Shown one piece after another: positions 26,557-41,055 of a DNA stretch of 62,089 nucleotides. A program made the position numbers and the translations under genes. The notes under the pieces are model-generated. The model was not told the origin of the DNA and did not search any database. It saw nothing but the letters and a program-made list of their open reading frames with translations. The stretch is from the IMG/VR virus record IMGVR_UViG_3300032243_000799, positions 1 through 62,089 of that record; one strand, given 5' to 3'. Within the stretch, counting starts at the first letter, position 1, and each line of letters begins with the position of its first letter. The stretch comes from a virus. Taxonomy: Duplodnaviria; Caudoviricetes.

Positions 26557-26598
26557 TGGGGGATGATGTACATTTGTATACCTTATCACAAAATTGAA

Positions 26599-26680
26599 CG
26601 TAAACCCTTGTGGGATAAGGACTTACGACGAATTTTCGGCCAAAAATTTGACGTAAGTGCTTGTGGCATAACGACTTACG
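26599..26680. repeat. 82-bp double-palindrome element A1
   Basis: CGTAAACCCTTGTGGGATAAGGACTTACG + 24 bp + CGTAAGTGCTTGTGGCATAACGACTTACG. Confidence 0.92.
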
Positions 26681-26692
26681 CTCAATCCTAAC

Positions 26693-26749
26693 GCAAACAG
26701 TGTGCCGTTCAACTTTGGCACGGCTTTTGCTCTAGCAACCGGTATGCCA
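26693..26749. promoter_or_regulatory. Three sigma54-type boxes (-,+,-)
   Basis: - 26693-26707 CGGCACA-CTGT-TTGC; + 26716-26730 TGGCACG-GCTT-TTGC (perfect consensus); - 26735-26749 TGGCATA-CCGG-TTGC. Confidence 0.6.
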
Positions 26750-26881
26750 AACTAACAAAAAACGCCACAAAGTTTTGTCAAAATCTCTTGACAGAAAAAT
26801 CTTCAGATTTCTCTTGCAATCTAAAGAATCCATGGTATAATGTCGATATAAGAAGTAAGAGAGAAAGAGAGAGTTGAGAAG

Positions 26882-27106
26882 ATGGAAAAGTGTGTGAGTG
26901 TGAATGATTTTATCCGTAGCCTTCCCCGTATTGTGGAAAAGAAAGTGTGGAAGGTTATCGATGAGAATGGCAAGGTAGTGCAGGGTGTGGGTTCTACCGA
27001 TAACCGCAAGACTACTGCACAAGCGTATATTGACGCTAAGTATCCTGGTCGTGAAATGAAGTTGGTATTCTCTCATTTCAAGGGTATGATGACCCTCCCC
27101 CGATAA
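26882..27106 (+). CDS. Early hypothetical protein
   Basis: Promoter plus purine leader. Confidence 0.7.
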   Translation: MEKCVSVNDFIRSLPRIVEKKVWKVIDENGKVVQGVGSTDNRKTTAQAYIDAKYPGREMKLVFSHFKGMMTLPR

Positions 27107-27161
27107 GGGGGTTGCGGCGGCGGAAAAGTTTGGTATAATACTGGAAAGAGAAAGAGAGAAA

Positions 27162-27371
27162 GTGATGAATCGTAAGACTCTGGAAAAGATGCTGGCTGTT
27201 AGGGGTTATGCTCTGCGTGAAACGTCTGATAGAGAGGCTAGGTGGATGGTGGTTTCTACCTTGACCCATTTTCACTGGAGTTTCAAGACTTTGTCCGGTG
27301 TCCAAAAGTTTGCCTCTAACGAAAAGGATATGAGAGCATACGCCGATAAGGTTTTGGCACTGAACCCCTAA
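27162..27371 (+). CDS. Early hypothetical protein
   Basis: TTGCGG/TATAAT promoter, purine leader. Confidence 0.7.
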   Translation: MMNRKTLEKMLAVRGYALRETSDREARWMVVSTLTHFHWSFKTLSGVQKFASNEKDMRAYADKVLALNP

Positions 27372-27429
27372 AAGGGGGGTTGCGGAATCAAAAAAGTTTG
27401 GTATAATTCAACTAAAGAAAGAGAGAACC

Positions 27430-27759
27430 ATGAAAACCAAGTTTGCTATCATCGAAAACGCCAAGCGTCAAGCCCGTATGAGTTTCCTCGGAATTGCTAT
27501 TCCCTGCCAGCGTAAACTTGCAGACGGAGAGTATGGGCCGATTTGCTCTGAGAAGGTTTTGAAGTTCAATCGGACTGCTTTGCGGAATGTTGGCAAGAAA
27601 GCCAAGGAAAAGGCCGATCCCCGCTATCGTGGGGGTGATGATCTTATGATTGTGAAGGTTGGCAAGCCCGGCTCCCCCGAAAGGGTGGCTGCTCTGATCG
27701 AGCAGTATGCCGCTATCGCCGCCTATGGTGAGGAAGTCTCCCCCTTTTCGGAGGGGTGA
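27430..27759 (+). CDS. Early hypothetical protein
   Basis: 109 aa; TTGCGG/TATAAT promoter. Confidence 0.7.
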   Translation: MKTKFAIIENAKRQARMSFLGIAIPCQRKLADGEYGPICSEKVLKFNRTALRNVGKKAKEKADPRYRGGDDLMIVKVGKPGSPERVAALIEQYAAIAAYGEEVSPFSEG

Positions 27760-27779
27760 CATCCGTACACTGTCTCGGC

Positions 27780-27816
27780 TAATCCTGCGGATTTGGGCTG
27801 GTTGGGTCTAGTCAGC
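27780..27816. repeat. Family B motif copy 1
   Basis: TAATCC-TGC-GGATTT-N14-TAGTCAGC. Confidence 0.85.
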
Positions 27817-27827
27817 CAAATATTCGA

Positions 27828-27909
27828 CGCAAGTACTTGTCGCCAAAGGACTTACGACGAAATTTCGGCCGCAAATTTAACGTAAGTGCTTATCCCACAA
27901 CAACTTAGA
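27828..27909. repeat. 82-bp element A2
   Basis: CGCAAGTACTTGTCGCCAAAGGACTTACG + 24 bp + CGTAAGTGCTTATCCCACAACAACTTAGA. Confidence 0.92.
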
Positions 27910-27921
27910 ACAATATCTAAC

Positions 27922-27936
27922 GCAAAACTCATGCCA
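27922..27936 (-). promoter_or_regulatory. Sigma54-type box
   Basis: Minus strand TGGCATG-AGTT-TTGC, starting 13 nt after element A2. Confidence 0.55.
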
Positions 27937-28053
27937 TACTTGTGTCAAAATTTCTTGACATAAAAATCATAGGATTTTTCTTGCAGTGCTCAAGATAGTG
28001 TGGTAGAATGTCGATATAAGAGTAAGAGAGCAACAAAGAAAGAGAGAGTTGAT

Positions 28054-28254
28054 ATGATGAATGTTGGTGATTTTGTGACTGTTTCCTATGATAATGGGAA
28101 TATTTATTCTGGAGAAGTTATCGGTTTGAAATCTATGCTTCCTGGAGATGGTCACGAGACTGAGCGTGTCCTATTTACGCTGAGGGTTGATAATCAGTAT
28201 CGATCACTGTACGTTCACAAGTGTGTATCGTTAGAGATTGCGGTTCCGGCTTGA
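28054..28254 (+). CDS. Early hypothetical protein (SH3/Sm-like beta barrel)
   Basis: MMNVGDFVTVSY...YSGEV; promoter and purine leader. Confidence 0.65.
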   Translation: MMNVGDFVTVSYDNGNIYSGEVIGLKSMLPGDGHETERVLFTLRVDNQYRSLYVHKCVSLEIAVPA

Positions 28255-28304
28255 CAGATTAAAGTTAGCCTGTAAAATTGTCGATATAAGAGATAGAAAA
28301 GGGA

Positions 28305-28490
28305 ATGAAAATGACTAATGCAGAATATGAAACTTGGAAGAATCAATACGATAAGGAAATCGAAAATACTAAGCCTGTGGAGTTGTGCCGTACCACACAA
28401 AAGCGTAAGGTTCGTCGTGGTTCAGCAGGACGCAACTATTATGGCGAACTTCGCCGTTTTAGGGGTTATCGTGGCCCGTTGACAAATTAA
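28305..28490 (+). CDS. Early basic hypothetical protein
   Basis: Own TTGACA promoter. Confidence 0.6.
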   Translation: MKMTNAEYETWKNQYDKEIENTKPVELCRTTQKRKVRRGSAGRNYYGELRRFRGYRGPLTN

Positions 28491-28533
28491 AGTCTATGTT
28501 GTAGAATGTCGATATAAGAGAAAGAGAGCAAAA

Positions 28534-28719
28534 ATGAATCCTTCCACTACCAACGTTACGATTCACGCAACTACCATTCAGGGTATTTTTGTGACTGTAA
28601 AAAGTTTCGATGTAATCATTGAGAACGGAAAGCCGGTGATTATGTTTTTTACGGTTGACGAAAACGGCCAGCATGGTATCTTTAATCATAACCAACTGAA
28701 AAACTACATTGAGCGTTAA
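28534..28719 (+). CDS. Early hypothetical protein
   Basis: Own TTGACA/TAGAAT promoter. Confidence 0.65.
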   Translation: MNPSTTNVTIHATTIQGIFVTVKSFDVIIENGKPVIMFFTVDENGQHGIFNHNQLKNYIER

Positions 28720-28720
28720 A

Positions 28721-28834
28721 ATGAAAACGAAGAAAAAGAGCAAGCAACAGAAAGTAATGGAAACGGAAGTTAATCGGGCACTGGCTCGGGTGAAGTTGCT
28801 GGAAAAGTTGTATCTCAAGAGTAAAGGAAAGTAA
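28721..28834 (+). CDS. Small basic protein (37 aa)
   Basis: Exactly fills the gap between its neighbours. Confidence 0.5.
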   Translation: MKTKKKSKQQKVMETEVNRALARVKLLEKLYLKSKGK

Positions 28835-29161
28835 ATGACTCACACTGAAGCCGTTAGCATGGTTCGTGGTAAGCGTAACGCTAACCGTCGTAAGGTTGGC
28901 AATAATACCTATGCCGAAATTCTGTCGGATGGTAGCGTTGGTATCATGCTGCACAGTACCTATGTTGTGAAGATTCACGAAAACAATCTTTATACTCTGA
29001 ATACTGGCGGATGGTATACGCCTACCACTAAGGATAGGATTAACCAGTTTTGTCCTGCTAGAGTTTCTCAGCGTAAGGGACAATGGTATGTTTCTCGTAA
29101 GTGTGCTGATGGTTGCCGAAATGAATTTCCCTTTGTCGATGGAATGGTGGTGCAGGGATGA
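28835..29161 (+). CDS. Conserved phage early protein
   Basis: NNT...LHST...LNTGGWYTPTTKDRIN...VSQRKGQWYV pattern. Confidence 0.7.
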   Translation: MTHTEAVSMVRGKRNANRRKVGNNTYAEILSDGSVGIMLHSTYVVKIHENNLYTLNTGGWYTPTTKDRINQFCPARVSQRKGQWYVSRKCADGCRNEFPFVDGMVVQG

Positions 29162-29364
29162 ACTTAATTAATTGTGGCCTTTTCGTTATCGTAACTATGG
29201 TTGTAATGGTTTGCTTTGCGGAAATCTTTCTCATGTTGTGGGACGGGATTGACCGATATATGACTAGGCGAGCAGATTACAAGATGATGAGCCAGTATGT
29301 GGAAAACCCTGTGGTTATGATTAATGAAAAGGGTGAAGAATACTGGGTGGGTTACTCTAAATAA
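29158..29364 (+). CDS. Small membrane protein
   Basis: Hydrophobic N-terminus; ATGA-coupled. Confidence 0.6.
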   Translation: MNLINCGLFVIVTMVVMVCFAEIFLMLWDGIDRYMTRRADYKMMSQYVENPVVMINEKGEEYWVGYSK

Positions 29365-29565
29365 AAGAAAGGATTCCAGGGATGGTATTAACAATTGACG
29401 GATTTAGTTTTAGCCTTGGTTGTATTGCTACTATTTGTGCTGTTTATTTTGTAAGTGATCTGGTTTTTACTAGGGAGAGTGAAAATGAACGCGACGAATT
29501 CTGAGAGAGTTTTTCTTTTGGCATCATTTTTGCTGGGGTGTGCATTGACTATTTTGATGTTGTGA

Positions 29566-29647
29566 CCTAAACCCTTGCAACTAAAGGACTTAGGGCGAGG
29601 GAGCGGCGCCCCGCGAATCGTAAGTGCTTATGCCACAAGTACTTAGA
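29566..29647. repeat. 82-bp element A3
   Basis: CCTAAACCCTTGCAACTAAAGGACTTAGG + 24 bp + CGTAAGTGCTTATGCCACAAGTACTTAGA. Confidence 0.92.
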
Positions 29648-29659
29648 GATAATGCTGAC

Positions 29660-29674
29660 GCAAAAGCTGTGCCG
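29660..29674 (-). promoter_or_regulatory. Sigma54-type box
   Basis: Minus strand CGGCACA-GCTT-TTGC, starting 13 nt after element A3. Confidence 0.5.
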
Positions 29675-29785
29675 CAAAAATATTTCTGGTTTGGCACAGA
29701 ATTATATTTTGAATTTCTCAAAGAATCCTCTTGCGTTGGCCGATAATTAGTGTAGACTAAGAGCATCACAACGGAGAACAGTATC

Positions 29786-29974
29786 ATGTTGAACGATTTC
29801 GATGATGTGAACCGTCTGCTGTCTGAGATGCGTGACGAGGGATTGGTCGAGCCGATTGACGATTCCACCCTCAATGTCGATTTTTGGGATTGGGCCGATG
29901 TGGTCGGAATTGTGGATGAGTTTGAACCGCAAGAGATGGTTGACGAGAGCGGCGAAGTGTGGTATGTTTCTTGA
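29786..29974 (+). CDS. Acidic early protein
   Basis: GGAG SD; D/E-rich. Confidence 0.7.
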   Translation: MLNDFDDVNRLLSEMRDEGLVEPIDDSTLNVDFWDWADVVGIVDEFEPQEMVDESGEVWYVS

Positions 29975-29987
29975 GAGGAGATAGTCG

Positions 29988-30251
29988 ATGAGTCACCCAG
30001 ACCCCTTGTTCGATCCCGATAACTCTTATGAGGATGATGACATGGAATACCATGACGATAGCACAGATATCAATTATGACGATCACAACGATTTCCACGC
30101 CGATGAAAATTGGTGGGCGGATAGGGCAGAGGACGATGCCGACGAATATGATGACAATATGGATGGAGATCACGATTCATCAATGGATTCTATTGGTTGG
30201 GGAGACGATGATAGTCTGGCATATGGTGGTGTCGGTTACGAGGATTGGTGA
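29988..30251 (+). CDS. Extremely Asp-rich protein (87 aa)
   Basis: GAGGAG SD; DGDHDSSMDSIGWGDD C-terminus. Confidence 0.75.
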   Translation: MSHPDPLFDPDNSYEDDDMEYHDDSTDINYDDHNDFHADENWWADRAEDDADEYDDNMDGDHDSSMDSIGWGDDDSLAYGGVGYEDW

Positions 30252-30256
30252 TATTT

Positions 30257-30547
30257 ATGGAAACTGAAAATATCAAAAATTGGATTTCTAACTTTTTCAC
30301 TAAGGATAATAAGATGACGAAGATTGTTGTGACGCATACGGATACTTTTGGTGGCGAGCCTAATTTTGGTTGGGTGAAGCGTTACGAGTTTCCGATTAAT
30401 AGTGGGGCTTCTCAGCGTAATATTGTGCGTCGGGCTAAGTTTCTCGCCGGTATGACTGGTGTTAAGGCTGACACTTATGATTATGGTGACGGCTATACCG
30501 TTAAGCCTCGCGGATATCACCAAGTCATTTTTGTTGATTTTGAGTGA
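30257..30547 (+). CDS. Early hypothetical protein
   Basis: TDTFGGEPNFGWVKR motif; start uncertain. Confidence 0.65.
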   Translation: METENIKNWISNFFTKDNKMTKIVVTHTDTFGGEPNFGWVKRYEFPINSGASQRNIVRRAKFLAGMTGVKADTYDYGDGYTVKPRGYHQVIFVDFE

Positions 30548-30684
30548 CAATCAACTCGCCGGTGAACCTTGCGGAAATGAAAGAGTATTGGCTCGAAAAT
30601 TTTTCTCAAGTGGGTACTTGACACTTGTCGATAATAGTGTAGAATTGGTGGTATAAGGGTTTGATTTCTAACTGAAAGGGTTTT

Positions 30685-31095
30685 ATGAACGACGTAGTTT
30701 TGATTGGTGGTATTTTTGCGGCTGTGGTGTGTGGTCTTCTGGCCTTTAGCCTTTTCCATATCTATCGTGGTGTTCACGGTAGTCTGGCGAATGCTCAGGT
30801 TGGTGAGGTTTATAATTTTGAATATCTGCAACCGCATCATGGTGATCCGGTTAGGATTCTTGCTAGGGTGATTGAGCCGGTTTATACTTTGGATAAGTCT
30901 TCTATCGAGAGACTGAATCGACGCAGTGGTTATCGTAAGAACGATTCGCAGTTCAAGAGGACTAATCATCTTGTAACATGTGAGACTCCTGATGGTTCTA
31001 TCCGACAGTTTTATGCTGAACGTGCTCGTAACATTCGCAGGCCATTGCTTGCAGGGCTGCTCTTCCGTACAGGTACTGCACATCTGTTCGCGTGA
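30685..31095 (+). CDS. Membrane-anchored early protein
   Basis: N-terminal TM helix; own promoter at 30618-30645. Confidence 0.7.
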   Translation: MNDVVLIGGIFAAVVCGLLAFSLFHIYRGVHGSLANAQVGEVYNFEYLQPHHGDPVRILARVIEPVYTLDKSSIERLNRRSGYRKNDSQFKRTNHLVTCETPDGSIRQFYAERARNIRRPLLAGLLFRTGTAHLFA

Positions 31096-31123
31096 ACAAT
31101 AGTTCAGTTCGGCTAAACCCGGC

Positions 31124-31205
31124 TCTAAGTTGTTGCCCCACAACGACTTAGGGTTTGGGGGCGCCGCCGGATTCGCCGTAAGTGCTTATACCACAACGCT
31201 TTACG
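31124..31205. repeat. 82-bp element A4
   Basis: TCTAAGTTGTTGCCCCACAACGACTTAGG + 24 bp + CGTAAGTGCTTATACCACAACGCTTTACG. Confidence 0.92.
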
Positions 31206-31266
31206 TTTAAAAAGATTTTTTCAAGACTGTCCTTGACTCTATCCGATAATACTGTAGACTAAGAGT

Positions 31267-31431
31267 ATGAATACTAACTACTGCTACTCCGGATATTCGT
31301 GGCGTGTTTTTCAGCATAACCGATTTGTGGGTTATGTAGTGGCTATGAGCGAACTGGACGCTCTGCGTAAGGCCAAAGAAAAGTTTGGATCGTATCTCTG
31401 GGTAGAGCGGATTGTTGACTGTTCCACGTAA
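31267..31431 (+). CDS. Early protein (54 aa), probably leaderless
   Basis: ATG 6 nt after the TAGACT -10; its stop is the TAA of a family B motif. Confidence 0.6.
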   Translation: MNTNYCYSGYSWRVFQHNRFVGYVVAMSELDALRKAKEKFGSYLWVERIVDCST

Positions 31432-31465
31432 TCCTTCGGATTTGGCTGGTTTGGCTGTAGTCAGT
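31429..31465. repeat. Family B motif copy 2
   Basis: TAATCC-TTC-GGATTT-N14-TAGTCAGT. Confidence 0.85.
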
Positions 31466-31528
31466 CAGAAATCGGTGGTCTTGACAAGTCGTACTCTATA
31501 AGATAAAATCTTAGCAAAGGAGAGAGAT

Positions 31529-32035
31529 ATGCCTAACTGGTGTTTGAATAATTTGACCATTGAGCATGAAGATCGGTCTAAGGTTATGGAGTTTGTCCAC
31601 GCCTATAAAGAGGGTAAGGTTTGTGACCATTATCTTCCTGTACCAAAGGATGAAAAGGGCGAACTTATTACTGATGAATCTAGTTCTAATTATTGGTATA
31701 CATGGTGCATAAATAACTGGGGAACAAAGTGGGATATTGGTAGTGATAATAATGAGGTTCATGGGCTGAATCCTACAGTGGTTGGTAATCAGGCTACTAT
31801 GAGTTTTGATAGTGCATGGAATCCTCCTATTAGGCTGTATGAGAAACTGCACGAACTTGGATTTAGTGTTGAGGCTACCTATTTTGAGCCGGGTATGGGA
31901 TACTGTGGACTATTCCGAGACGGAGAAGATAATTATACTGAGTATAATAGCAAAGATATGATTCCTAAGCGTATTTGGGATGACTATAATCTTGATGAGT
32001 TTTTTAGTGATGATGAAGAAAAAGTAGAAGCATAA
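31529..32035 (+). CDS. DUF1281/YubB/Api92-like ferredoxin-fold protein
   Basis: MPNWCxN...WYxWCxxNWGTKWD...FDSAWNPP...YFEPGMGYCG. Confidence 0.8.
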   Translation: MPNWCLNNLTIEHEDRSKVMEFVHAYKEGKVCDHYLPVPKDEKGELITDESSSNYWYTWCINNWGTKWDIGSDNNEVHGLNPTVVGNQATMSFDSAWNPPIRLYEKLHELGFSVEATYFEPGMGYCGLFRDGEDNYTEYNSKDMIPKRIWDDYNLDEFFSDDEEKVEA

Positions 32036-32046
32036 GTGCGGCCCGC

Positions 32047-32128
32047 TCTAAGTTCTTTGCCCAAGGGGACTTAGGGTGGGTTTGCCCCGCCAAAATTGTC
32101 CTAACTCCTTATGCCGCAATCACTTGCA
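32047..32128. repeat. 82-bp element A5
   Basis: TCTAAGTTCTTTGCCCAAGGGGACTTAGG + 24 bp + CCTAACTCCTTATGCCGCAATCACTTGCA. Confidence 0.88.
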
Positions 32129-32156
32129 TCAAAAAATATTTTTTCAAGAAACCCTC

Positions 32157-32185
32157 TTGACAGTGCCGATAATAGATAGTAGAAT
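32157..32185 (+). promoter_or_regulatory. Sigma70-type promoter with CCGATA in the spacer (representative of a family)
   Basis: TTGACA-gtgCCGATAatagatag-TAGAAT; near-identical copies at 34972, 35721, 39872, 50027, 57138. Confidence 0.85.
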
Positions 32186-32204
32186 GGTAGAACAGGAGAA
32201 AAAT

Positions 32205-32459
32205 ATGATTGGCTTTACTAGATATTGTTTGACTGATAATGTGCGTAGGGTTGTGGAAGGTGATAATCTGACTTTTTCTGGATATACGTCTAGCGATAGG
32301 CCGTTTATTATTACGGTAAAGTTGAGTGATGCTAATGAATGGCTGAATGGTGGACTGATCCAGAGTTGCTTTCCGTATCTGGATTCTGAACAGCGTGAGA
32401 TTCTGATGACGGGTAATGATAATGAGGCTTGGGCAAGTATGTTTGGGGAGGGTGAGTAA
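32205..32459 (+). CDS. Early hypothetical protein
   Basis: AGGAG SD; LIQSCFPYLDSEQREILMTG motif. Confidence 0.7.
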   Translation: MIGFTRYCLTDNVRRVVEGDNLTFSGYTSSDRPFIITVKLSDANEWLNGGLIQSCFPYLDSEQREILMTGNDNEAWASMFGEGE

Positions 32460-32629
32460 TGAGCGATCCATATTGGACATTTCCGCAGTTTCCTGAGAAT
32501 GATAGTTGGGAAGTTCGATATTTGTGTTGGCGAGCATGTGGTGAAACTAGAGAACAAAGCACAAGACTATCTAATGAAGGCTATATGCCTGCTAGTTGGT
32601 GGATGCTTTATAGAAATGATGGGAAGTAG
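32459..32629 (+). CDS. Early hypothetical protein (56 aa)
   Basis: TAATG coupling. Confidence 0.5.
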   Translation: MSDPYWTFPQFPENDSWEVRYLCWRACGETREQSTRLSNEGYMPASWWMLYRNDGK

Positions 32630-32631
32630 AA

Positions 32632-32856
32632 ATGACTGTTAACGAACTTATTGAGCAGTTGAAGAGTTATCCTGGCGATATGAGGGTATTGACTCTTGGG
32701 TATGAGGGTGGGTTTAATGAACTTAGCCTGAGAACTGAGGATATTGTATTCAATGTGAACGATGAAGATAAATGGTATTATGGCCCTCATGAGTGTGTTA
32801 AGTATACTAATAGTGATATTAGTATGAAATGTGTGATTGTAGGGAGGGAAAGATGA
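32632..32856 (+). CDS. Conserved small phage protein
   Basis: MTVNELIEQLKSYPGDMRV...GYEGG. Confidence 0.7.
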   Translation: MTVNELIEQLKSYPGDMRVLTLGYEGGFNELSLRTEDIVFNVNDEDKWYYGPHECVKYTNSDISMKCVIVGRER

Positions 32857-33147
32857 TCTATCTTAATCTTAATGATATTGAGCGGTTGGCCGAAATTGTG
32901 GCCGAACTGGTTAAGTTGGATATGACTGTGGTTGCTGAGTTGAAGGGAACTAAGTGGAGTATTGAGGTGACTAAATGAGCAATGAAATAAACTATGGTGA
33001 TTGGTGTGATGATTGGGCTTGGTATTGTGATCCATTTAAGTATGAACGAGTAGCATCATATTGTTGTTGTCCTGAAGAAACAGAAGCTGTTCTCAAGGGC
33101 GAAGTTTGGGACGGTAAAACTAAGTATATGATTAATAGATCGGAAGG

Positions 33148-33414: not shown

Positions 33415-33560
33415 AAATCAGGCTATGATTCATATTATCAACTTTCTCAACTCTCGTATGAGTGCAATGAGTAAGAGTAATGTGGATAAGGTAAAAGAGT
33501 TGATTGGACTACATGAAATTTCAGCAAGTGAACTTGTGAATAAATATGTGGAGTTAGTTC

Positions 33561-34849: not shown

Positions 34850-34931
34850 CCTAAACCCTTGTCCCTAAAGCACTTAGGGCGAGGGCGCGGGGCAAAATTT
34901 GACGTAAGTGCTTATGCCACAATGACTTAGA
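34850..34931. repeat. 82-bp element A7
   Basis: CCTAAACCCTTGTCCCTAAAGCACTTAGG + 24 bp + CGTAAGTGCTTATGCCACAATGACTTAGA; starts immediately after a stop codon. Confidence 0.92.
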
Positions 34932-35131
34932 ATCAATTTTGGAAATCTCAAAAAAAGATTCACGAGACACCTTGACAATGACGATACTATACTGTAGAAT
35001 GATAGAACACGACGCAAGACGCTGCCACGATGCCAACAGCATAAACCTTCATGGCACTCTTGACAAGTGGGTATCAGTAACGTATACTGGTACTGTAACG
35101 ATTGGAATGTAACCTTTTGGAGATTGTAACC

Positions 35132-35380
35132 ATGAAGAAGTTTAGTTTTGTTGTTGATGTTGTGGCTGACGAACTTGATCGTGACGGTGTTGTGGATTCG
35201 ATTCGTTCTTGTCTGACCGATGCTCTGCCGGGTGACGTTCATGCGAATGTCAAGGCTGGAGAAGTCAAGGCTTTTAGCGAGCAGGGCTATAAGGTTTGGC
35301 GGGCTCGCGTGACGGGTGTTACTGCCGAGCAGGCCGGTGATGCTCACAATGCAAAGGTGGAAGTGGAAGCGACTGCCTGA
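35132..35380 (+). CDS. Early hypothetical protein
   Basis: GGAG SD, MKKFSFVVDV... Confidence 0.7.
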   Translation: MKKFSFVVDVVADELDRDGVVDSIRSCLTDALPGDVHANVKAGEVKAFSEQGYKVWRARVTGVTAEQAGDAHNAKVEVEATA

Positions 35381-35453
35381 CTTAACTAAACTGGACTATG
35401 CCAGTATAAATAGATTTTAGGCATAGTGCGGCGGGATAATTCCCGCGTAATGA

Positions 35454-35525
35454 GGCCCCGTAGTTCAATGGATAGAATAAGTGACTTCTAATCTCTAGAT
35501 GTAGGTTCGATTCCTGCCGGGGCTA
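35454..35525 (+). tRNA. tRNA-Arg(TCT)
   Basis: Acceptor GGCCCCG/CGGGGCT, anticodon loop CTTCTAA, GTTCGAT T-loop. Confidence 0.88.
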
Positions 35526-35531
35526 TTTTTA

Positions 35532-35605
35532 GGGAGCGTAGATCAATTGGTTAGATCGCCAGCCTGTCACGCTGGAGGTTGCGGGTTCAAGTCCCGTCGC
35601 TCTCG
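35532..35605 (+). tRNA. tRNA-Asp(GTC)
   Basis: GGGAGCG/CGCTCTC, CCAGC-CTGTCAC-GCTGG. Confidence 0.92.
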
Positions 35606-35610
35606 TTAAA

Positions 35611-35692
35611 CGTAAAGTGTTGTCACTCAACAACTTAGGACGAATTTGCGGGGCCATTTTTGACGTAAGTGCTTACCCCACAACGACTTGCA
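35611..35692. repeat. 82-bp element A8
   Basis: CGTAAAGTGTTGTCACTCAACAACTTAGG + 24 bp + CGTAAGTGCTTACCCCACAACGACTTGCA. Confidence 0.9.
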
Positions 35693-35771
35693 TCAAAAAA
35701 TAATTTTTCAAGAAAACGGATTGACAGTGCCGATATTTTAGTGTAGAATCGAGAGACACGCTAGGAGAAGC

Positions 35772-36479
35772 ATGATGAAAACGGCAGACGGTAACGATAA
35801 GTTGGGTAAGGGTTGTATTGTAGTTTCGCGTCCCGTGGGTGATACTTGCCCTAGTGACTGCGATTATCTTAACAACGGATGCTATGCTGAGGCTACAGAG
35901 AATCAGTATAAAAATGCCCGTGTCGCAGGGTTCGCTAATGTTATCACGGAGAAAAACAAAGTCCGTGCTATGATTCTGGAAGCCAAGCGTCGTGAGAAGT
36001 CTATTCGCTGGCATGAACGTGGTGACTGGTTTCTCAACGGTGAACTTGACACCGACTATGTTGCTAATGTAACGTGGGCGTGTGAGAGTATTCTGGCCGA
36101 TGGAAACACTCTGCCCGATATGTGGTTTTATACTCATATCTATGATAGTCGGCTTGTATCACTGGAAAAGTATATGAATGTATATGCCAGTGTGCATGAT
36201 GATAACGATATGAAAGATGCCGCTGCACAAGGCTTCAAACTGTTCGCATGGTGTGATAGTGATATGAAAATTGCACCCAAGCGTCCTAAGAGCAAGGCAA
36301 AAGCCGAGGCTTGGCGTAAAGCATTGCCCAAACTGGTCGTGCTGAACGATGCAAAGTTTGTGGTTTGCCCCGAGATTCGTCGTGGTCGATCTGTTATCAC
36401 TTGCACCGGCACGAAAGATAGTATCAGTTGTGATCTCTGCGTAAGAGGATTAGCCAACGTATTATTTCCTTCCCATTGA
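35772..36479 (+). CDS. Gp88-like Cys-rich protein
   Basis: GNDKLG...TCPSDC...CYA...IRWHERGDW...WFYTH...CP...CDLC. Confidence 0.7.
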   Translation: MMKTADGNDKLGKGCIVVSRPVGDTCPSDCDYLNNGCYAEATENQYKNARVAGFANVITEKNKVRAMILEAKRREKSIRWHERGDWFLNGELDTDYVANVTWACESILADGNTLPDMWFYTHIYDSRLVSLEKYMNVYASVHDDNDMKDAAAQGFKLFAWCDSDMKIAPKRPKSKAKAEAWRKALPKLVVLNDAKFVVCPEIRRGRSVITCTGTKDSISCDLCVRGLANVLFPSH

Positions 36480-36529
36480 GATTTTGGTGTATATACTAGT
36501 GGGCTTTAACTCACTAGGAGATATACACT

Positions 36530-37090
36530 ATGAAACATACTAATATAAGTCAATATATAAGAGCAAATAAGGATGAATTTAAACAACATATTTTAAATAG
36601 AAAAACAGAAAAAGAATTATCTGAAATATATGGTTGTTCTAATGCAACAATCATAGCAATGAAAAAAGAGTTAAAGTTACAATCAGGAGATTTATTTAAA
36701 GAAAATAGATTTAACCATAAATCTGACATAACACACTGTAAAAGTTGTGATCAAAAAAGCAAAAAAAATACTTGTTCTAAGTGCGTACAAAAAAGATCAA
36801 ATATAGCTAAAAAAGAACTATTAGTTGAAAAGGCTGGTGGAAAATGCATTAAGTGTGGATATAAAGAATGTATAGCCGCCTTGGACTTTCATCATATTGA
36901 CCCTAAAACTAAAGAAATAAATCTTAATACAAATTTAAATATAGACATTAAATTAAAAGAAATAAAAAAATGTGTTTTGCTATGCTGTCGATGTCATAGA
37001 GAACTGCACTGGCAAGAGACTATTGACTTTGTTCAAGCAAACAGATACGCTATAGACAAGACGAAAGAAAGATTGTTTCCTGCTCACTAA
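36530..37090 (+). CDS. HNH homing endonuclease (AT-rich insertion)
   Basis: GGKCIKCGY...ALDFHHIDP...KCVLLCCRCHRELH. Confidence 0.85.
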   Translation: MKHTNISQYIRANKDEFKQHILNRKTEKELSEIYGCSNATIIAMKKELKLQSGDLFKENRFNHKSDITHCKSCDQKSKKNTCSKCVQKRSNIAKKELLVEKAGGKCIKCGYKECIAALDFHHIDPKTKEINLNTNLNIDIKLKEIKKCVLLCCRCHRELHWQETIDFVQANRYAIDKTKERLFPAH

Positions 37091-37101
37091 AAGGTATTAA
37101 A

Positions 37102-37362
37102 ATGGCTAAGTATTATATTAAGTGTGGAAGTTTGGAACTAATCTACTCTTGCAATAAAAAGCCTATGGCAGCGGCTGCTGATGCACTGTGGGAAACAAAT
37201 GAGTATGATACTCTAGATGAATACTTTTATGTAGATGAGCGTGGATTTAAAACCTATGCTAATGCTTTGCCGGATACCAAAGTTTATCCTATTGACAAAG
37301 TTATGAAAAAGGGCGGATGGACTATGGAAAAGAAAAACGACGACAATTGTGAAGGAAAGTGA
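37102..37362 (+). CDS. Early hypothetical protein
   Basis: MAKYYIKCGSL...YVDERGF. Confidence 0.7.
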   Translation: MAKYYIKCGSLELIYSCNKKPMAAAADALWETNEYDTLDEYFYVDERGFKTYANALPDTKVYPIDKVMKKGGWTMEKKNDDNCEGK

Positions 37363-37368
37363 ACTAAC

Positions 37369-37450
37369 CGCAAACCCTTGGTGCGTAAGCACTTAGGGCT
37401 AGCGGGGCCGCCCCGGCTGATCCTAAGTCCTTTAGCAGCAACAACTTAGA
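37369..37450. repeat. 82-bp element A9
   Basis: CGCAAACCCTTGGTGCGTAAGCACTTAGG + 24 bp + CCTAAGTCCTTTAGCAGCAACAACTTAGA. Confidence 0.9.
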
Positions 37451-37535
37451 GAAAAAAGATTTTTTCAAGTTTCTGCTACGGATGGTCGATAATATAGATA
37501 TGGAACGAGAGAAGGTCTTGACAAAAGGTGGAAAC

Positions 37536-37907
37536 ATGATACAATGGGTGACTGTGCTGATTACATTGATTGGTTTGGCCTATAATGGTGTAAAGGATTA
37601 TCAGAAGGGGGAGATAAAAATTCCCCAAATGCCACAAAAGCAAGTATTGACAAAACCAGTTTATCCGGTACAATACTGTGTAATGGCTTATGATCCTAAT
37701 TTAGATAGAGTTTTTTACTTACATGAAAACGGACAATGGTATGATTACGCTCCACAACAACGACGATATGAGTCCTCGCCGCAAGTACGGCAACAAAATC
37801 AAGTTGAAGGTTCGCAAGCCTTGGGAAACTCCTACGGGTCACAAGGAACATCGGGATACCGTTATGGACAATCGACCCAAGCGTCAGCGTACACGATGCG
37901 ACGTTGA
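37536..37907 (+). CDS. Membrane-anchored protein with Gln-rich tail
   Basis: MIQWVTVLITLIGLAY hydrophobic start, AGGTGG SD. Confidence 0.55.
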   Translation: MIQWVTVLITLIGLAYNGVKDYQKGEIKIPQMPQKQVLTKPVYPVQYCVMAYDPNLDRVFYLHENGQWYDYAPQQRRYESSPQVRQQNQVEGSQALGNSYGSQGTSGYRYGQSTQASAYTMRR

Positions 37908-37938
37908 CAGAAGTTGGCGAAAAGAGTATGATATGTAG
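37723..37938 (+). CDS. Basic small protein overlapping the previous ORF in another frame
   Basis: RKPWETPTGHKEHR...DNRPKRQRTR; TTGACA/TACAAT promoter at about 37648. Confidence 0.5.
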   Translation: MKTDNGMITLHNNDDMSPRRKYGNKIKLKVRKPWETPTGHKEHRDTVMDNRPKRQRTRCDVDRSWRKEYDM

Positions 37939-37941
37939 ATT

Positions 37942-38014
37942 GCCGGTATAACTCAGTTAGCAGAGTGTCAAATTTGTAATTTGAATGTCGTGGGTGCAAA
38001 TCCTACTACCGGCT
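37942..38014 (+). tRNA. tRNA-Thr(TGT)
   Basis: GCCGGTA/TACCGGC, TCAAA-TTTGTAA-TTTGA; T-loop TGCAAAT. Confidence 0.85.
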
Positions 38015-38053
38015 TTATAAGTCAAAAGAAAAAACGTATGTAAAGGAAGATGA

Positions 38054-38125
38054 TCCGGAGTGGTGAAACTGGTATCACAAACGGCTTTGGTCCGTTTATT
38101 CATGGATCGTACCCATGCTCCGGAA
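38054..38125 (+). tRNA. tRNA-Gln(TTG)
   Basis: TCCGGAG/CTCCGGA, AACGG-CTTTGGT-CCGTT; T-loop ATCGTAC. Confidence 0.82.
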
Positions 38126-38130
38126 TTAGA

Positions 38131-38202
38131 TGCCCTGTAGCACAACGGTTGTGCAAGATGCTGTTAACATCGAGGTTGTAGGTTCGAATCCTACCGGGGC
38201 AG
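38131..38202 (+). tRNA. tRNA-Asn(GTT)
   Basis: TGCCCTG/CGGGGCA, GATG-CTGTTAA-CATC. Confidence 0.9.
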
Positions 38203-38205
38203 TTA

Positions 38206-38292
38206 GGAAGAATGGCAGAGCGGTCTAATGCATCTGATTACTAATCAGAAGAAGTGTAAAAACTTCCGTGGGTTCGAATCCTACTTCTTCCG
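38206..38292 (+). tRNA. tRNA-Ser(ACT), long variable arm
   Basis: GGAAGAA/TTCTTCC with G73, TCTGA-TTACTAA-TCAGA, variable arm GAAGT..ACTTC. Confidence 0.85.
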
Positions 38293-38320
38293 TCGGAGGC
38301 TGACGTTGAGTTGCGAGTGT

Positions 38321-38392
38321 GGCCCCATAGTATAATGGCTAGTATATCGGGCTTTCATCCCGAAGATCGGAGTTCGATCCTCCGTGGGGCTA
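38321..38392 (+). tRNA. tRNA-Glu(TTC)
   Basis: GGCCCCA/TGGGGCT, TCGGG-CTTTCAT-CCCGA. Confidence 0.9.
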
Positions 38393-38458
38393 CTAAAGTT
38401 TTGGGTCTTGACAGGTCGATATTGGTATGGTAGACTGTTGGAACAAGAAAGGAAAGTG

Positions 38459-38626
38459 ATGATGAAGAACCTTCGCATCTATGATATTCTGACCGAGGAT
38501 GGTAAATCTCTGGCCGACATTCACCTATCCATACAAGAGGATTTTGATTGGTCAGACGTATTCGACAAACTGTATGATTTTACTACAGAAAATGTTCAGA
38601 GTTATTCTTATGAGGAAATTAAGTGA
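38459..38626 (+). CDS. Acidic hypothetical protein
   Basis: Promoter at 38408, AAGGA SD. Confidence 0.6.
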   Translation: MMKNLRIYDILTEDGKSLADIHLSIQEDFDWSDVFDKLYDFTTENVQSYSYEEIK

Positions 38627-38865
38627 ATAATTTTGAGATTGGTGATGTGGTTTGGTATGAGACTGGTTTTCATACTGCTAGTCGTGCTAGGATTGTTGGT
38701 ATTGGTGGTAAGGGTGTGACGAAAACCTATATTGTCCATTTTATTGATCATTCTTCCGATCAAGATGATGGTAGCGGATACAATAGAAGCCATTATTGTA
38801 ATGGTGGTATTCCTGTATCATGGCGAAAATGTAAGGCTATTGACTATATAGGGAACGAGAAGTAG
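38623..38865 (+). CDS. SH3-like hypothetical protein
   Basis: FEIGDVVWY...ARIVG. Confidence 0.6.
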   Translation: MNNFEIGDVVWYETGFHTASRARIVGIGGKGVTKTYIVHFIDHSSDQDDGSGYNRSHYCNGGIPVSWRKCKAIDYIGNEK

Positions 38866-38876
38866 AATACAGCCAT

Positions 38877-38950
38877 GGGCCTCTAGCACAATCGGCTAGT
38901 GCAAGAAACTTTTAATTTCTAGGTTGTGGGTTCGAGTCCCACGGGGCCCA
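38877..38950 (+). tRNA. tRNA-Lys(TTT)
   Basis: GGGCCTC/GGGGCCC, AGAAA-CTTTTAA-TTTCT. Confidence 0.92.
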
Positions 38951-39001
38951 CTTGACAGTTGATTTGTTTGGTGTATGATGGTGATAACGAAGGAGCAAGA
39001 G

Positions 39002-39178
39002 ATGAGATACGAAGATAACGAATCCTATAACTATGACTATGATGAGTTGGTTGAAAATGCCGACGAATTGTATACACAGGACGATGAGCCTTGGATGGAT
39101 GAATATGAGGATACTGATGATCTTCGTGAATATGATAGTTATTACCATAACGTAGCCGAAGAAATTGCTGACGATTGA
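39002..39178 (+). CDS. Very acidic, Tyr-rich protein (58 aa)
   Basis: AAGGAG SD; own promoter. Confidence 0.7.
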   Translation: MRYEDNESYNYDYDELVENADELYTQDDEPWMDEYEDTDDLREYDSYYHNVAEEIADD

Positions 39179-39282
39179 TTCTCTTCTGAATGGACGCAAC
39201 TTGGTGGGACAAGTATCTAAAAAAAGCACAAACGCTTTCTTCCTTTCTCTAGTACGTTCAAATCGTACCGTCCGTTTTTACC

Positions 39283-39789
39283 ATGAATATTCTGGAATCT
39301 GAAGTGGATGACTATCGTAAAACTTCTGATGGTAAAATTATCCAAGGTGCTAGCCACACTTGTCGTGTTCTGAATCACAAAGAACGCAATAAGATCATTA
39401 TCAAGGCAGTGTGCAACCTTCGGAAAATTAGTGATAATTTCGATAGTATTGTTTGTTGCGGCGTAAGTGGCCTCATGGTGGTTCCGCAAGTTGCTGAACT
39501 GCTGAATAAGAATATCATCATTATTCGTAAGAAGAACGAGAATTGTTATTCAGAATTTTCCATTGAGGGAGTATCACCCTTTAGGTATATTATCCTTGAC
39601 GATCTTATTTGTAGTGGCAATACTGTGCGGTATATACAACGGAGTATCAGCAGCGAATTCCCAAGGGCTAAGTGTTTAGGGTTATATTGCTATATTCCCG
39701 ACGAGTGTGCGTATACTTCCGAAACTTCTAAATTGTTTGAGCGTGACTTCCACATGCCTCTCCTAAATCCTTGCCCGACAAGGACTTAG
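39283..39789 (+). CDS. Type I phosphoribosyltransferase-fold protein
   Basis: IIILDDLICSGNT PRPP-binding loop; IVCCGVSG; IIIRKK. Confidence 0.8.
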   Translation: MNILESEVDDYRKTSDGKIIQGASHTCRVLNHKERNKIIIKAVCNLRKISDNFDSIVCCGVSGLMVVPQVAELLNKNIIIIRKKNENCYSEFSIEGVSPFRYIILDDLICSGNTVRYIQRSISSEFPRAKCLGLYCYIPDECAYTSETSKLFERDFHMPLLNPCPTRT

Positions 39790-39843
39790 GACGAGTTCGC
39801 GGGGCCGGGCTGGTCGTAAGTGCTTATCTCCCAACCACTTGCG
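39762..39843. repeat. 82-bp element A10
   Basis: CCTAAATCCTTGCCCGACAAGGACTTAGG + 24 bp + CGTAAGTGCTTATCTCCCAACCACTTGCG; supplies the stop codon of the PRTase. Confidence 0.92.
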
Positions 39844-39936
39844 ACACGAAATTTTTTCTCAAAGTTTCCGCTTGACAGTGCCGATAACATACTGTAGAAT
39901 GAGTGGAGTAGAACGAAGAACGATAACACGAAAGGG

Positions 39937-40893
39937 ATGATTATGCCTGCTGCTGTTGAAAAGATGATGTTCGTTGGTGAGACGCCGTGGCACGGTCTGG
40001 GCAATCAGTTGGATGAGGCTCCGACGATTGGCGAGGCTATTACCGCTGCCGGTCTGGATTGGGAAGTTGGTCTGAAGGATTTGCAGACCGTTGACGGCGT
40101 TCCGGTTTCGCATCGTGCGACCTACCGCAAGACCGATGGTAGCATCCTCGGTGTGGTTGGGCCTCGCTATACGCCCCTCCAGAATCAGGATGCTTTCGAC
40201 TGGTTCCAGCCGTTTCTAGATGCTGGCGAGTGCAATCTGCATACCGCTGGTTCGCTACATAGCGGTCAAAAGGTCTGGGTGCTTGCTCAACTCAACCGTG
40301 ACAATAGCGAGATCGTGAAGGGTGATGATGTCTGCAAGTTTATTCTGCTGTCGAATAGCCATGATGGCACGACTGCGATTCGCGTCGGATATACTCCGAT
40401 TCGCGTCGTTTGCGTGAATACTCTCGCGGCTGCTCACAGCAAGAGTAGTGGAAGCAAACTGATTCGTATTCGTCACACTCGTTCCAGCAAGAACAATCTG
40501 GAAAATGTGCGTGATATTATGGATAACATTAATGCTGAGTTTGAGGCGACTGCGGAACAGTATCGGTTCCTCGCGTCGAAGAATTTTAATCAGGCCGATG
40601 TTCGTCGGTATGTTAAGGTTCTGCTGGGTATAGAAGGTACTGTGGATGCGGATATTAAAACCCGCACCCGTAATATCATGGACGATATTCTGGCTCGTAT
40701 CGAAGGCCCGAAGCAAAGTGCTACTGGTGTTCGTGGAACCTACTGGGCTGCATACAACGGATACAATGAGTATCTCAATTATGCTAAGGGTCGAACCTCG
40801 GACAACCGACTCGACTCGCTCTGGTTCGGCCAGAACGCTAACGACAACGTGAAGGCACTGGAGACTGCTATGCAGTTTGCCAACGCCCTCTGA
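39937..40893 (+). CDS. DUF932 family protein
   Basis: TPWHGLG...AGLDWEV...YTPLQN...TAGSLHSGQKVW...LLSNSHDGT...TPIRVVCVNTL...WAAYNGYNEY. Confidence 0.88.
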   Translation: MIMPAAVEKMMFVGETPWHGLGNQLDEAPTIGEAITAAGLDWEVGLKDLQTVDGVPVSHRATYRKTDGSILGVVGPRYTPLQNQDAFDWFQPFLDAGECNLHTAGSLHSGQKVWVLAQLNRDNSEIVKGDDVCKFILLSNSHDGTTAIRVGYTPIRVVCVNTLAAAHSKSSGSKLIRIRHTRSSKNNLENVRDIMDNINAEFEATAEQYRFLASKNFNQADVRRYVKVLLGIEGTVDADIKTRTRNIMDDILARIEGPKQSATGVRGTYWAAYNGYNEYLNYAKGRTSDNRLDSLWFGQNANDNVKALETAMQFANAL

Positions 40894-40911
40894 TCGGTAA
40901 ACTTTAAACTG

Positions 40912-40955
40912 AGTCGCCGTAGGGGCTGCTAGAGGCTCCTGCGGCGATTCTATTT
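40912..40955 (+). terminator. Hairpin terminator after the DUF932 gene
   Basis: GTCGCCGTAGGGGC...GCTCCTGCGGCGAT followed by TCTATTT. Confidence 0.6.
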
Positions 40956-40973
40956 AGATACAGACCAACTCGA

Positions 40974-41055
40974 CGTAAGTGCTTGTGACATAAGGACTTA
41001 GGACGAGCCGGGGCCGCCAATTTAGTCGTAAGTTTAAGTGCCACAAGGGGTTACG
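40974..41055. repeat. 82-bp element A11
   Basis: CGTAAGTGCTTGTGACATAAGGACTTAGG + 24 bp + CGTAAGTTTAAGTGCCACAAGGGGTTACG. Confidence 0.9.

Follow-up and report, generated by a model that had tools for sequence, protein, structure and literature searches.

Introduction

Among described systems, the closest concept to the arrays reported here is the promoter-early stem-loop (PeSL) cassette of the T4-like phages (Arbiol et al., 2010, PMC2839356; Comeau et al., 2014, PMC4122927). The PeSL cassette is repeated between short early genes and comprises a symmetric element, an AT-rich tract, sigma-70-like −35 and −10 boxes, a ribosome site and a start codon; its many copies are clustered within the variable early region, the symmetric element, a single short GC-rich stem-loop, is interpreted as a terminator, and the PeSLs are proposed to drive indels. 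Here, we analyze a 62,089-nucleotide stretch of a tailed phage (IMG/VR record IMGVR_UViG_3300032243_000799; Caudoviricetes; CheckV completeness estimate 44%), which in its whole length we term the window, wherein eleven copies of an 82-bp double-palindromic element punctuate the early genes between positions 26599 and 41055. We find that, in a group of large uncultured freshwater phages, the early-gene block is marked by at least a dozen such double-palindrome sites, which lie close upstream of early promoters. The sequence comparisons presented below lead us to propose, with confidence that is evenly balanced, that these are paired operators for a putative dimeric DNA-binding protein, which would control or insulate the early promoters. 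These phages are not close to T4, and in place of a single stem-loop they have an 82-bp double palindrome with a 53-bp spacing and no covariation between its arms.

A second point of comparison is offered by the stoperators of the Cluster A mycobacteriophages, at which repressor binding stops elongation (PMC9283540): these are tens of protein-binding sites in short intergenic gaps, with one orientation relative to transcription, and they furnish a precedent for operators that double as roadblocks. The copies described here are likewise intergenic, with an orientation that is consistent within loci and confined to one strand per genome. However, stoperators are single asymmetric sites of 13-14 bp, to which a monomeric repressor binds and which occur throughout the genome of a temperate phage, whereas the present elements are paired palindromes, restricted to one block, in large and apparently virulent phages in which no integrase was found.

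Two further precedents concern geometry. The class I sites of CRP are centred at −61.5, −71.5, −82.5 and −92.5, and the phi29 p4 protein has sites upstream of the phi29 promoters A2c, A2b and A3. As in these systems, we see dyad sites upstream of an UP element and a −35 box, at positions that differ by whole turns; the differences are that each promoter here has two sites 53 bp apart, with half-sites of 11-15 bp, that the unit is repeated at a dozen or more promoters per block, and that at least two specificities exist among relatives. Recombination sites such as attC, dif and loxP consist of inverted box pairs with ~11-bp arms around 6-8 bp centres, with attC lying just after genes. The elements share with them the four boxes in inverted pairs, the ~11-bp arms and the position just after genes, but they come without an integrase, without maintained complementarity and without a link to gene gain or loss; further, their length is invariant, whereas that of attC is variable, and their centres are variable. 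Finally, the elements differ from the REP, BIME, REPIN and MITE repeats in forming one block per genome and in showing no compensation.

Anatomy of the Element and Its Place among the Early Genes

The eleven element starts given in the initial annotation, and the division of each element into 29+24+29 bp, were all confirmed in the sequence. The inner-arm pattern ACTTASG-N24-CSTAASTNCTT has 17 matches over both strands of the 62,089-bp record, all within 26617-41033, as against none in 100 shuffled sequences. A position weight matrix (PWM) built from the eleven elements retrieves, at 15 bits or more, those eleven places only, which agrees with the claim that none lies outside 25.5-41.2 kb; by this matrix a twelfth 82-bp copy is absent from the record. 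A PWM of the 29-mer recovers the 22 expected palindromes together with two solo copies that bracket the array, namely a 29-bp palindrome at 25513-25541, seen on both strands at the left edge, and a weak 29-mer at 41122-41150, seen on the minus strand only at the right edge (22.4 bits). On 20 shuffles the same matrix gave no hits in 19 and a single hit in one.

The consensus of the 29-bp palindrome is CsTAAGTCCTT-N7-AAGGACTTAsG. In each arm (within CsTAAGTCCTT) the TAA and the TT are conserved and the four positions between them degenerate, whereas the 7-bp centres are nearly free; beyond the 29-mer there is weak conservation of T-n-G-n on the left and of n-C-n-A on the right. The two palindromes of an element stand exactly 53 bp apart, i.e., about five helical turns, around a GC-rich core in which G38 and C44-C45 are present in 85-97% of copies. 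This core often contains GGCC, CGCG or GCGGCCGC-like strings, a property common to the type-A elements of the window and the type-B elements introduced below, and a T-rich run usually lies in the spacer directly before the second palindrome. In promoter-oriented copies the spacer string GGCGGGCC occurs 43 times and GGCCCGCC 12 times; the idea of an invertible core was set aside, the core being a near-palindrome. The inner arms had been described as better conserved than the outer arms, and they are, though only modestly so: 14.5 and 14.0 bits versus 12.9 and 12.9 bits in 222 doublets collected through an unrelated anchor gene. The 7-bp centres are the least conserved part of the element, with 0.29 and 0.40 bits per position, and among the right-hand centres of the eleven window copies only two pairs are identical. 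With 61-78% identity to a reference copy, the window copies are thus diverged and not near-identical.

All eleven elements are on the plus strand. A1 (26599-26680), with the regular 29+24+29 division, has an AT-rich spacer with a GGCC centre; A2 (27828-27909) is the next copy. A3 (29566-29647) begins directly after the stop of the open reading frame (ORF) at 29455-29565, and A7 (34850-34931) directly after that of 34418-34849. A6 (33671-33752), the left outer arm of which is degenerate, holds the stop of the ORF at 33561-33698, just as A10 (39762-39843) holds that of 39283-39789, and A8 (35611-35692) starts 5 nt after a tRNA-Asp gene at 35532-35605. These contexts had been correctly noted at the outset. 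The remaining copies are A4 (31124-31205), A5 (32047-32128), A9 (37369-37450) and A11 (40974-41055), the last element of the array, with a degenerate right palindrome. The tendency to abut genes extends to the relatives: in 47 of 380 cases an element starts at the base after the stop of a conserved gene, and in 20 at distance 1.

Distribution among Uncultured Phages

The inner-arm pattern matches at least 117 stretches of viral contigs in IMG/VR. Among the matches listed, the weight matrix delineates 461 non-overlapping copies in 115 of the 117 loci, with up to 13 copies per locus, about 1 kb apart and nearly always in a single orientation within a locus. Of these copies 430 are unique; the working set comprised the 387 scoring at least 45 bits, and 150 copies were used for the MAFFT alignment and the hairpin pairing tests. 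The alignment of the latter has 82 columns and zero gaps. Measured from start to start, 461 pairs of neighbouring 29-mers are 53 bp apart, 6 are 52 bp apart and 3 are 54 bp apart, and 33 palindromes stand alone in these element-found loci. The same spacing prevails in a second set of loci, which was found via protein 0a and not via the element, where 281 of 284 close pairs are 53 bp apart.

Five complete relatives (223-238 kb) contain 14-25 matches per strand each, and in all five the matches fill one 17-23 kb stretch, the exception being a single two-mismatch stray. This block is compositionally distinct: in two type-A genomes considered whole (G003 and G002), its GC fraction is 0.42-0.43 versus 0.33-0.34 in the rest of the genome, and the composition of the window shows the same step. 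No cultured relative is close: megablast of 26000-42000 against 50,697 phage records returned no match, and tblastn with the large terminase and a DUF7227 protein reached relatives of ~25-28% identity at most; the large terminase is at best ~25% identical to Bacillus phage terminases. Parts of the region recur in sequencing runs whose records give freshwater, lake water, aquaculture, aquatic or plain metagenome as their label. The best DNA run shares 0.92 of the words of the region and may be the sample of origin, and one metatranscriptome shares 0.08. The runs compared with the window were in contig form, in which transcript ends are not visible and uncovered parts carry no meaning.

A scan of host genomes (one per species; 596 Gb) yielded mostly single matches in unrelated taxa, as by chance, and no host or host repeat can be named from it. 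Several copies per stretch were met only in a few contigs, possibly of phage origin, from metagenome bins with discordant labels (Gammaproteobacteria, Planktophila, Alphaproteobacteria and unclassified). Searches of article texts on PeSLs, on intergenic repeats with early promoters and on stoperators and palindromic repeats returned no description of the 82-bp element, and six 11-mer arm strings returned, among the matches listed, unrelated primer-type matches only.

Symmetry of the Element: DNA versus RNA

As the four arms are similar, two folds are possible, namely two local hairpins or one long hairpin. With two local hairpins, 72.5% of the cells are paired in the 150 copies versus 72.7 ± 0.3 in column shuffles, 376 of 500 shuffles being as good, and the single long hairpin pairs in 73.1% versus 74.9 ± 0.4, with 500 of 500 shuffles as good. 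In the 387 copies, the Watson-Crick frequencies equal the product of the column frequencies for all four helix models, with columns 2/28 as the exception. The 24 strongest couplings by mutual information link columns at most two apart; longer-range couplings in this ranking are few, are confined to the spacer, to a single arm or to a single loop, and never correspond to a stem pair. About 27% of the stem cells are unpaired, with mismatches that recur at fixed places, such as C·C at columns 62/74 in 176 of 387 copies and G·G at columns 28/55 in 208 of 387. The initial observation of no compensatory changes therefore holds on both 150 and 387 copies, and the argument that missing compensation favours double-stranded DNA protein sites over RNA stems is upheld on hundreds of copies. 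Symmetry that is not maintained by pairing implies four independently conserved half-sites, the hallmark of double-stranded DNA that a symmetric protein recognizes, and the exact 53-bp spacing over a variable spacer likewise points to double-stranded DNA. On these alignments, the palindrome symmetry is read as that of putative double-stranded DNA sites and not of a fold.

The contending view, which the above evidence bears on directly, is an RNA-level signal: two hairpins, or one long irregular hairpin akin to those cleaved by RNase III in T7, would end, process or stabilize the upstream mRNA. It gains some plausibility from the abutment of elements on gene 3′ ends, from the scarcity of intrinsic terminators in the array, from single-sequence folds of −16 to −33 kcal/mol for ten of the eleven window copies (A6: −9.6), and from a left hairpin that is more pairable on the minus strand when G·U is allowed (0.825 versus 0.727). 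However, covariation is missing from either fold and from type B, the stems have recurrent mismatches at fixed places, and an exact spacing is unexpected of independent hairpins. Further, the form of an intrinsic terminator is not seen, in that the arms are rich in AT and contain the fixed mismatches, neither hairpin leads directly into a U-tract and the downstream T-tract is preceded by an A-tract; a terminator scan flags, among the 29-mers, that at 25511 and, on the opposite strand, A1 only. An Rfam search of 25000-43500 with E up to 1 placed no family on any element. Contigs from one RNA library cross A8 and A9, which fits read-through and not termination. Moreover, the helical phasing to the −35 box described in the next section has no RNA explanation. 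Hence, we regard an RNA-level role as decidedly improbable.

Early Promoters in Helical Phase with the Elements

The elements are polar with respect to promoters: in the 60 nt downstream of the 387 copies TTGAC occurs 220 times, as against 20 times in the 60 nt upstream; the downstream occurrences are distributed over 213 of the 387 copies. In this they recapitulate the PeSL arrangement of a symmetric element upstream of an AT-rich tract and a sigma-70-like promoter. The promoter family can be written as TTTTCTMAAG, N8, TTGACA, N2-3, sCGATAAT and then a TAGAAT-like −10 box. The cassette after A5 (32129-32185, plus strand) exemplifies it, with an A/T tract followed by TTTTTTCAAG, N8, TTGACA, N2, GCCGATAAT and TAGAAT, and equivalent cassettes lie downstream of A4, A6, A7, A8 and A10. 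The box is TTGACT at 27 nt downstream of A4 and at 28 nt downstream of A6, and TTGACA at 28 nt downstream of A5, A8 and A10 and at 40 nt downstream of A7. The claim that nearly all elements are followed by a strong promoter was thus overstated: it stands for these six of the eleven (A4-A8 and A10), with TTGAC 27-40 nt downstream, whereas the promoters of A1-A3 are further off, A9 is followed by an A/T tract and a CGATAAT motif without TTGAC, its −35 box being degenerate, and A11 has no clear promoter.

The offsets of TTGAC from the element are not spread evenly, with 169 of the 220 at 17-19, 27-30 or 38-41 nt; counted from the −35 box, the centre of the right palindrome lies near −68, −78 or −89. 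The offset classes differ by A/T-tract DNA inserted between the element and the fixed part of the promoter. The same steps are seen when orthologous junctions are compared between phages: upstream of family 1 the −35 offset is 29-31, 39-41 or 50 depending on the phage, upstream of family 7 it is 18 or 28-29, and upstream of family 44 it is 17-18 or 28-29. Such steps of one helical turn (~10-11 bp) are what is expected from a face-of-helix constraint between a bound protein and RNA polymerase.

The region from 24.5 to 43.5 kb has 87 promoter-like sites versus 45.9 ± 7.3 in shuffles, and 8 terminator-like sites versus 12.1 ± 3.3. With few intrinsic terminators and with elements abutting stops, there is room for a roadblock of the stoperator type.

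The context downstream of A1-A3 differs from that of the other elements, with ACGCAAA, then a GTGCC...GGCAC hairpin and the promoter further on. The corresponding conserved motif, (A)GCAAA-N4-5-GTGCC, is found in the window at 26681-26725, 27910-27940 and 29648-29700 and in relatives (L009, L010, L018, L238 and L294) downstream of the left-most elements of both types, often as a GTGCC...GGCAC hairpin with a T-run; some loci have tandem GCAAAATGC repeats downstream of their left-most elements. The left part of the array also features another promoter-like repeat, TGTATAAT-GTCGATATAAGAG, with AAAGTTTTGTCAAAATCTCTTGACA before it; the copies, of two families (D6 and D8), are at 25677-28538 (6 copies) and at 25624, 26769 and 27936. 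CGATA is present in both promoter classes at different positions relative to the −10 box and may be a phage-specific promoter signal.

A Second Specificity in the Same Positions

To the loci found by the element we can add 80 that were gathered via protein 0a, out of 278 relatives of this protein. Doublets occur downstream of 0a in 49 of the 80, and upstream of it in none. Two of the 80 have arrays of solo 29-mers, and such arrays in other lineages show that the single palindrome is the basic unit. In seven of the 80, the same positions are occupied by a distinct element, type B, which is a doublet of the form CTGCCAAAATGGCAG, N14, CTGCCAAAATGGCAG. Its 14-bp spacer is GC-rich (e.g., GCGGGCCGCGATTT), its spacing is fixed (29 bp in 46 of 54 close pairs), and it stands upstream of the same promoter family as type A. 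Three complete type-B genomes have 18, 14 and 12 copies, in each case in one block of 15-20 kb and on one strand; in the two considered whole (G006 and G007) the block has a GC fraction of 0.42-0.44 versus 0.33-0.35 in the rest of the genome. Among 174 type-B 15-mers there is no compensated departure from pairing.

Thus, the slots, the promoters and the design of the array are the same, while the palindrome and its spacing are different, which has the look of a changed cognate DNA-binding specificity. Were folding the sole demand on the sequence, the swap between types A and B would be difficult to account for. One locus (L287:11001-15381) displays a third kind of repeat, of ~98 nt and in five copies, with a TTGACA box at its end, in the position of types A and B.

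Candidate Binding Proteins

Gene 0a (24876-25100, plus strand) is always the first gene immediately to the left of the array. It codes for a 74-aa protein with a three-helix helix-turn-helix (HTH) domain similar to the DNA-binding domain of GcrA and an RGRP AT-hook. Its structural model has a mean pLDDT of 81.8, and among known structures it matches best the DNA-binding domain of Caulobacter GcrA and the N-terminal domain of a small terminase; in Foldseek the TM-scores relative to the target are 0.81-0.86 and the probabilities high, with E-values of only 0.3-1.2. The protein-atlas match of 0a to GcrA (score 0.83) is to be taken as a lead only. The initial annotation had put this HTH protein forward as a binder of the elements: it is a plausible DNA-binding protein, but not one that can determine the specificity. 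Type-B phages and phages without elements show no change in its recognition helix, and a helix that is kept across element types cannot read the palindromes specifically; 0a was hence rejected as the specificity determinant. It is left as a candidate general DNA binder. In three loci from two lineages 0a lacks the AT-hook, and there the A/T fraction of the element at columns 46-51 is 0.00-0.17, versus 0.42-1.0 in 17 other loci, which include L042 with a variant hook; this apparent relationship between hook loss and A/T content is a weak lead from sequence comparison. Gene 1c gave no usable hit in the protein atlas. It is possible that the binder is encoded by the host.

A Proposed Mechanism of Action

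Of the alternatives that accompanied the initial annotation, the first, phased operators for an oligomeric DNA-binding protein, is the one favoured by the evidence. We advance the following scheme for the action of such operators. The pair of palindromes comes directly after the preceding gene and keeps a fixed helical phase to the sigma-70-type early promoter downstream of it. The pair would receive two dimers, which, if bound 53 bp apart, would share one helical face and could cooperate. The bound protein would then turn the promoters of the GC-richer early block on or off in concert. As the block has almost no intrinsic terminators, the bound protein might additionally serve as a roadblock that insulates the short transcription units. 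We infer protein binding, an action on transcription and the direction of the effect from what is directly seen in the sequences: the anatomy, the lack of stem covariation, the rigid spacing, the phasing, the single block per genome and the second specificity of type B.

Several points weigh against this proposal. The type-B centres are 29 bp, or ~2.8 turns, apart, and the same-face argument does not extend to them; the promoter offsets of type B are also less cleanly periodic (13, 23-26, 36 and 51-54). The same class of promoter occurs without an element at 30618, 38408, 48095, 50027 and 57138, which makes the element an add-on that promoter function does not require. For a simple repressor, positions of −64 to −145 would be unusual, and the three offset classes could partly reflect the common descent of whole cassettes. 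Columns 2/28 do co-vary, with 205 Watson-Crick pairs observed versus 150 expected in the 387 copies. Moreover, searches for genes that track the type of element turned up no convincing binder: the single lead near the array, family 84, is present in 5 of the 7 type-B loci and in none of the 52 type-A loci, a distribution confounded with lineage. A comparison of two type-A with two type-B complete genomes likewise gave no clear DNA-binding candidate; these share a median amino-acid identity of ~52-65% pairwise, so that lineage-specific genes abound.

A tentative extension, to which we assign a distinctly lower likelihood than an even one, is that the elements constitute a swappable operator code for the early host-takeover block. 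Each lineage would have one specificity with its own cognate regulator, in a manner like immunity or incompatibility groups but in virulent phages, the specificities being the 29-mers 53 bp apart, the solo 29-mers, the 15-mers 29 bp apart and perhaps the third kind of repeat.

The confinement of the elements to one compositionally distinct block per genome, together with the GC-rich core with its GGCC, CGCG or GCGGCCGC-like strings in both types, also brings to mind DNA roles outside transcription, such as landmarks for stepwise genome entry, sites of a nucleoid- or partition-like organizer, decoys for a host protein, or replication or nicking signals. However, these would leave the polar and phased link to promoters unexplained. 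Further, the block lies at differing distances from the ends of the record in three genomes with direct terminal repeats and has, therefore, no fixed relation to a terminus. We consider such roles unlikely.

Recombination and Mobility of the Element

The principal suggestion of the initial annotation was that the elements are sites for the shuffling of cassettes, comparable to attC. In such a scenario, a tyrosine recombinase (e.g., host XerC/D) would cut within the 7-bp centre, with excision, insertion or inversion of modules, or else the repeats would serve as substrates for a homologous recombination that shuffles the modules, the elements thereby being cassette boundaries. The 11-bp arms around a 7-bp centre do resemble the core sites of recombinases, and the papers on PeSLs propose a shuffling role for the terminator-promoter repeats of T4-like phages (PMC4122927, PMC2839356). 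However, the centres are the least conserved part of the element, whereas a crossover core should match between partner sites, and no complementarity is maintained. The statement that no recombinase is encoded in the window is borne out by the lack of a PF00589 match there. The proposed search for tyrosine recombinases in the genome came out negative, with PF00589 in 0 of 5 complete ~230-kb relatives, and PF00239 (serine recombinase) is likewise found in 0 of 5; as positive controls, PF00589 was detected in 14 of 14 genomes and PF00239 in 12 of 14. This search covered phage genomes and the two families PF00589 and PF00239.

Neither do gene gain, loss and reordering break preferentially at the elements. 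The downstream neighbour is conserved at a rate of 0.313 at 333 element junctions versus 0.357 at 727 others and 0.25 at 253 other junctions with gaps of at least 100 nt, i.e., adjacency at the elements shows no excess of breaks. Among 461 distinct events of an extra segment, elements flank 40 on both sides and 200 on one side only, while 221 have none on either side, where chance predicts 9.9%, 43% and 47%. Both tests use clustered ORFs and crude gene calls, over distant relatives and events that are not independent; the relatives are far more diverged than the phage pairs that define PeSLs, and the want of indel enrichment at the elements in this comparison is a possible difference from the PeSLs.

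The order of genes across the array is broadly conserved, and its right half keeps both its order and its element junctions in dozens of loci. The left half does vary among relatives in order and content, with 1c before 2d in some loci and the reverse in others, and the unit of element and promoter can be present or absent between the same genes, e.g., 3a and 3b. Here, a junction that gains an element also gains a promoter (157 nt versus 10-13 nt), and this joint gain is the PeSL pattern of a regulatory cassette and not that of a recombination site. Alignments of contigs from co-occurring relatives often switch within elements, with joints to the window in or at A1, A3, A5 and A8, but these joints are ambiguous, as they lie in repeats and stem from contigs of 90% likeness. 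Taken together, the recombination reading is largely refuted, and we hold it to be unlikely, with modest homologous recombination between repeats being possible.

The presence or absence of the unit between orthologous junctions, along with the many copies, the terminal inverted symmetry and the small fixed size, might also evoke a selfish miniature mobile element (MITE-, REP- or REPIN-like) that spreads within the phage genome. However, the elements keep to one block and one orientation and are tied to promoters at a fixed phase, what is gained is the element with its promoter, hairpin-type compensations are lacking, and the copies of the window have diverged from each other to the extent described above. 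We deem this a very remote prospect.

Neighbouring Genes and RNAs

The window contains several other features of note in and around the array. A Pistol ribozyme (RF02679) at 35390-35452 on the plus strand scores 54.8 bits against a gathering score of 34.5. It lies directly upstream of tRNA-Arg(tct) (35454-35525) and the tRNA-Asp (35532-35605) that precedes A8, an arrangement that suggests self-cleavage at the 5′ side of the phage tRNA pair. A phage tmRNA is encoded at 58748-59105 (plus strand; 116.5 bits), with the tag peptide GTNQLALAA, and adjoins tRNA-Ile(tat) at 58438-58511.

A second family of repeats, TAATCCTnCGGATTTGG...TAGTCAGC, has a 5-bp stem with an UNCG-type loop followed by a second stem, and has no Rfam hit. 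Its copies, of 50 nt each and all on the plus strand, are at 27771, 31420, 33892, 41216, 41437, 42190 and 42793; some of them, e.g., those at 31420 and 33892, have another TTGACA promoter directly after them. Upstream of the 6a homologues, ~100 nt of conserved non-coding sequence extend from the element-linked promoter to this repeat, with which they end, and this sequence may be a small RNA.

Among the proteins of the block, the small early products 3a and 3b (29786-30251) are very acidic, with 19 D/E of 62 residues and 33 D/E of 87, respectively, a composition that is typical of DNA mimics or anti-restriction proteins. Gene 2d (28835-29161) matches the Pfam family Kyano_Gp96. At 37482-37938, after A9, there are two overlapping frames, 9a (141 aa) and 9b (71 aa, with 19 K/R), both with homologues in ~30 loci; the pair may represent a genuine overlap or a frameshift, or it may be an artefact that stems from a single conserved frame.

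Conclusions

The structure of the element, its rigidity, its phasing and its interchangeable specificities set these arrays apart from the PeSLs. They also provide a cautionary case, in that a recombinase-like geometry and a position just after genes came without cassette behaviour. In these large uncultured phages, a kind whose early-gene regulation is almost unstudied ground, one sequence rule marks the early transcription units in hundreds of metagenomic contigs, and, by virtue of this rule, host-takeover and anti-defence genes can be found by position alone. The rigid geometry and the helical phasing give clear predictions, and the two interchangeable specificities in the same slots amount to a natural experiment for finding the cognate regulator. 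Were the tentative notion of a swappable operator code to be true, early shut-off or insulation would be co-ordinated within a phage's own genome, and co-infecting relatives could either silence or ignore each other's early genes.

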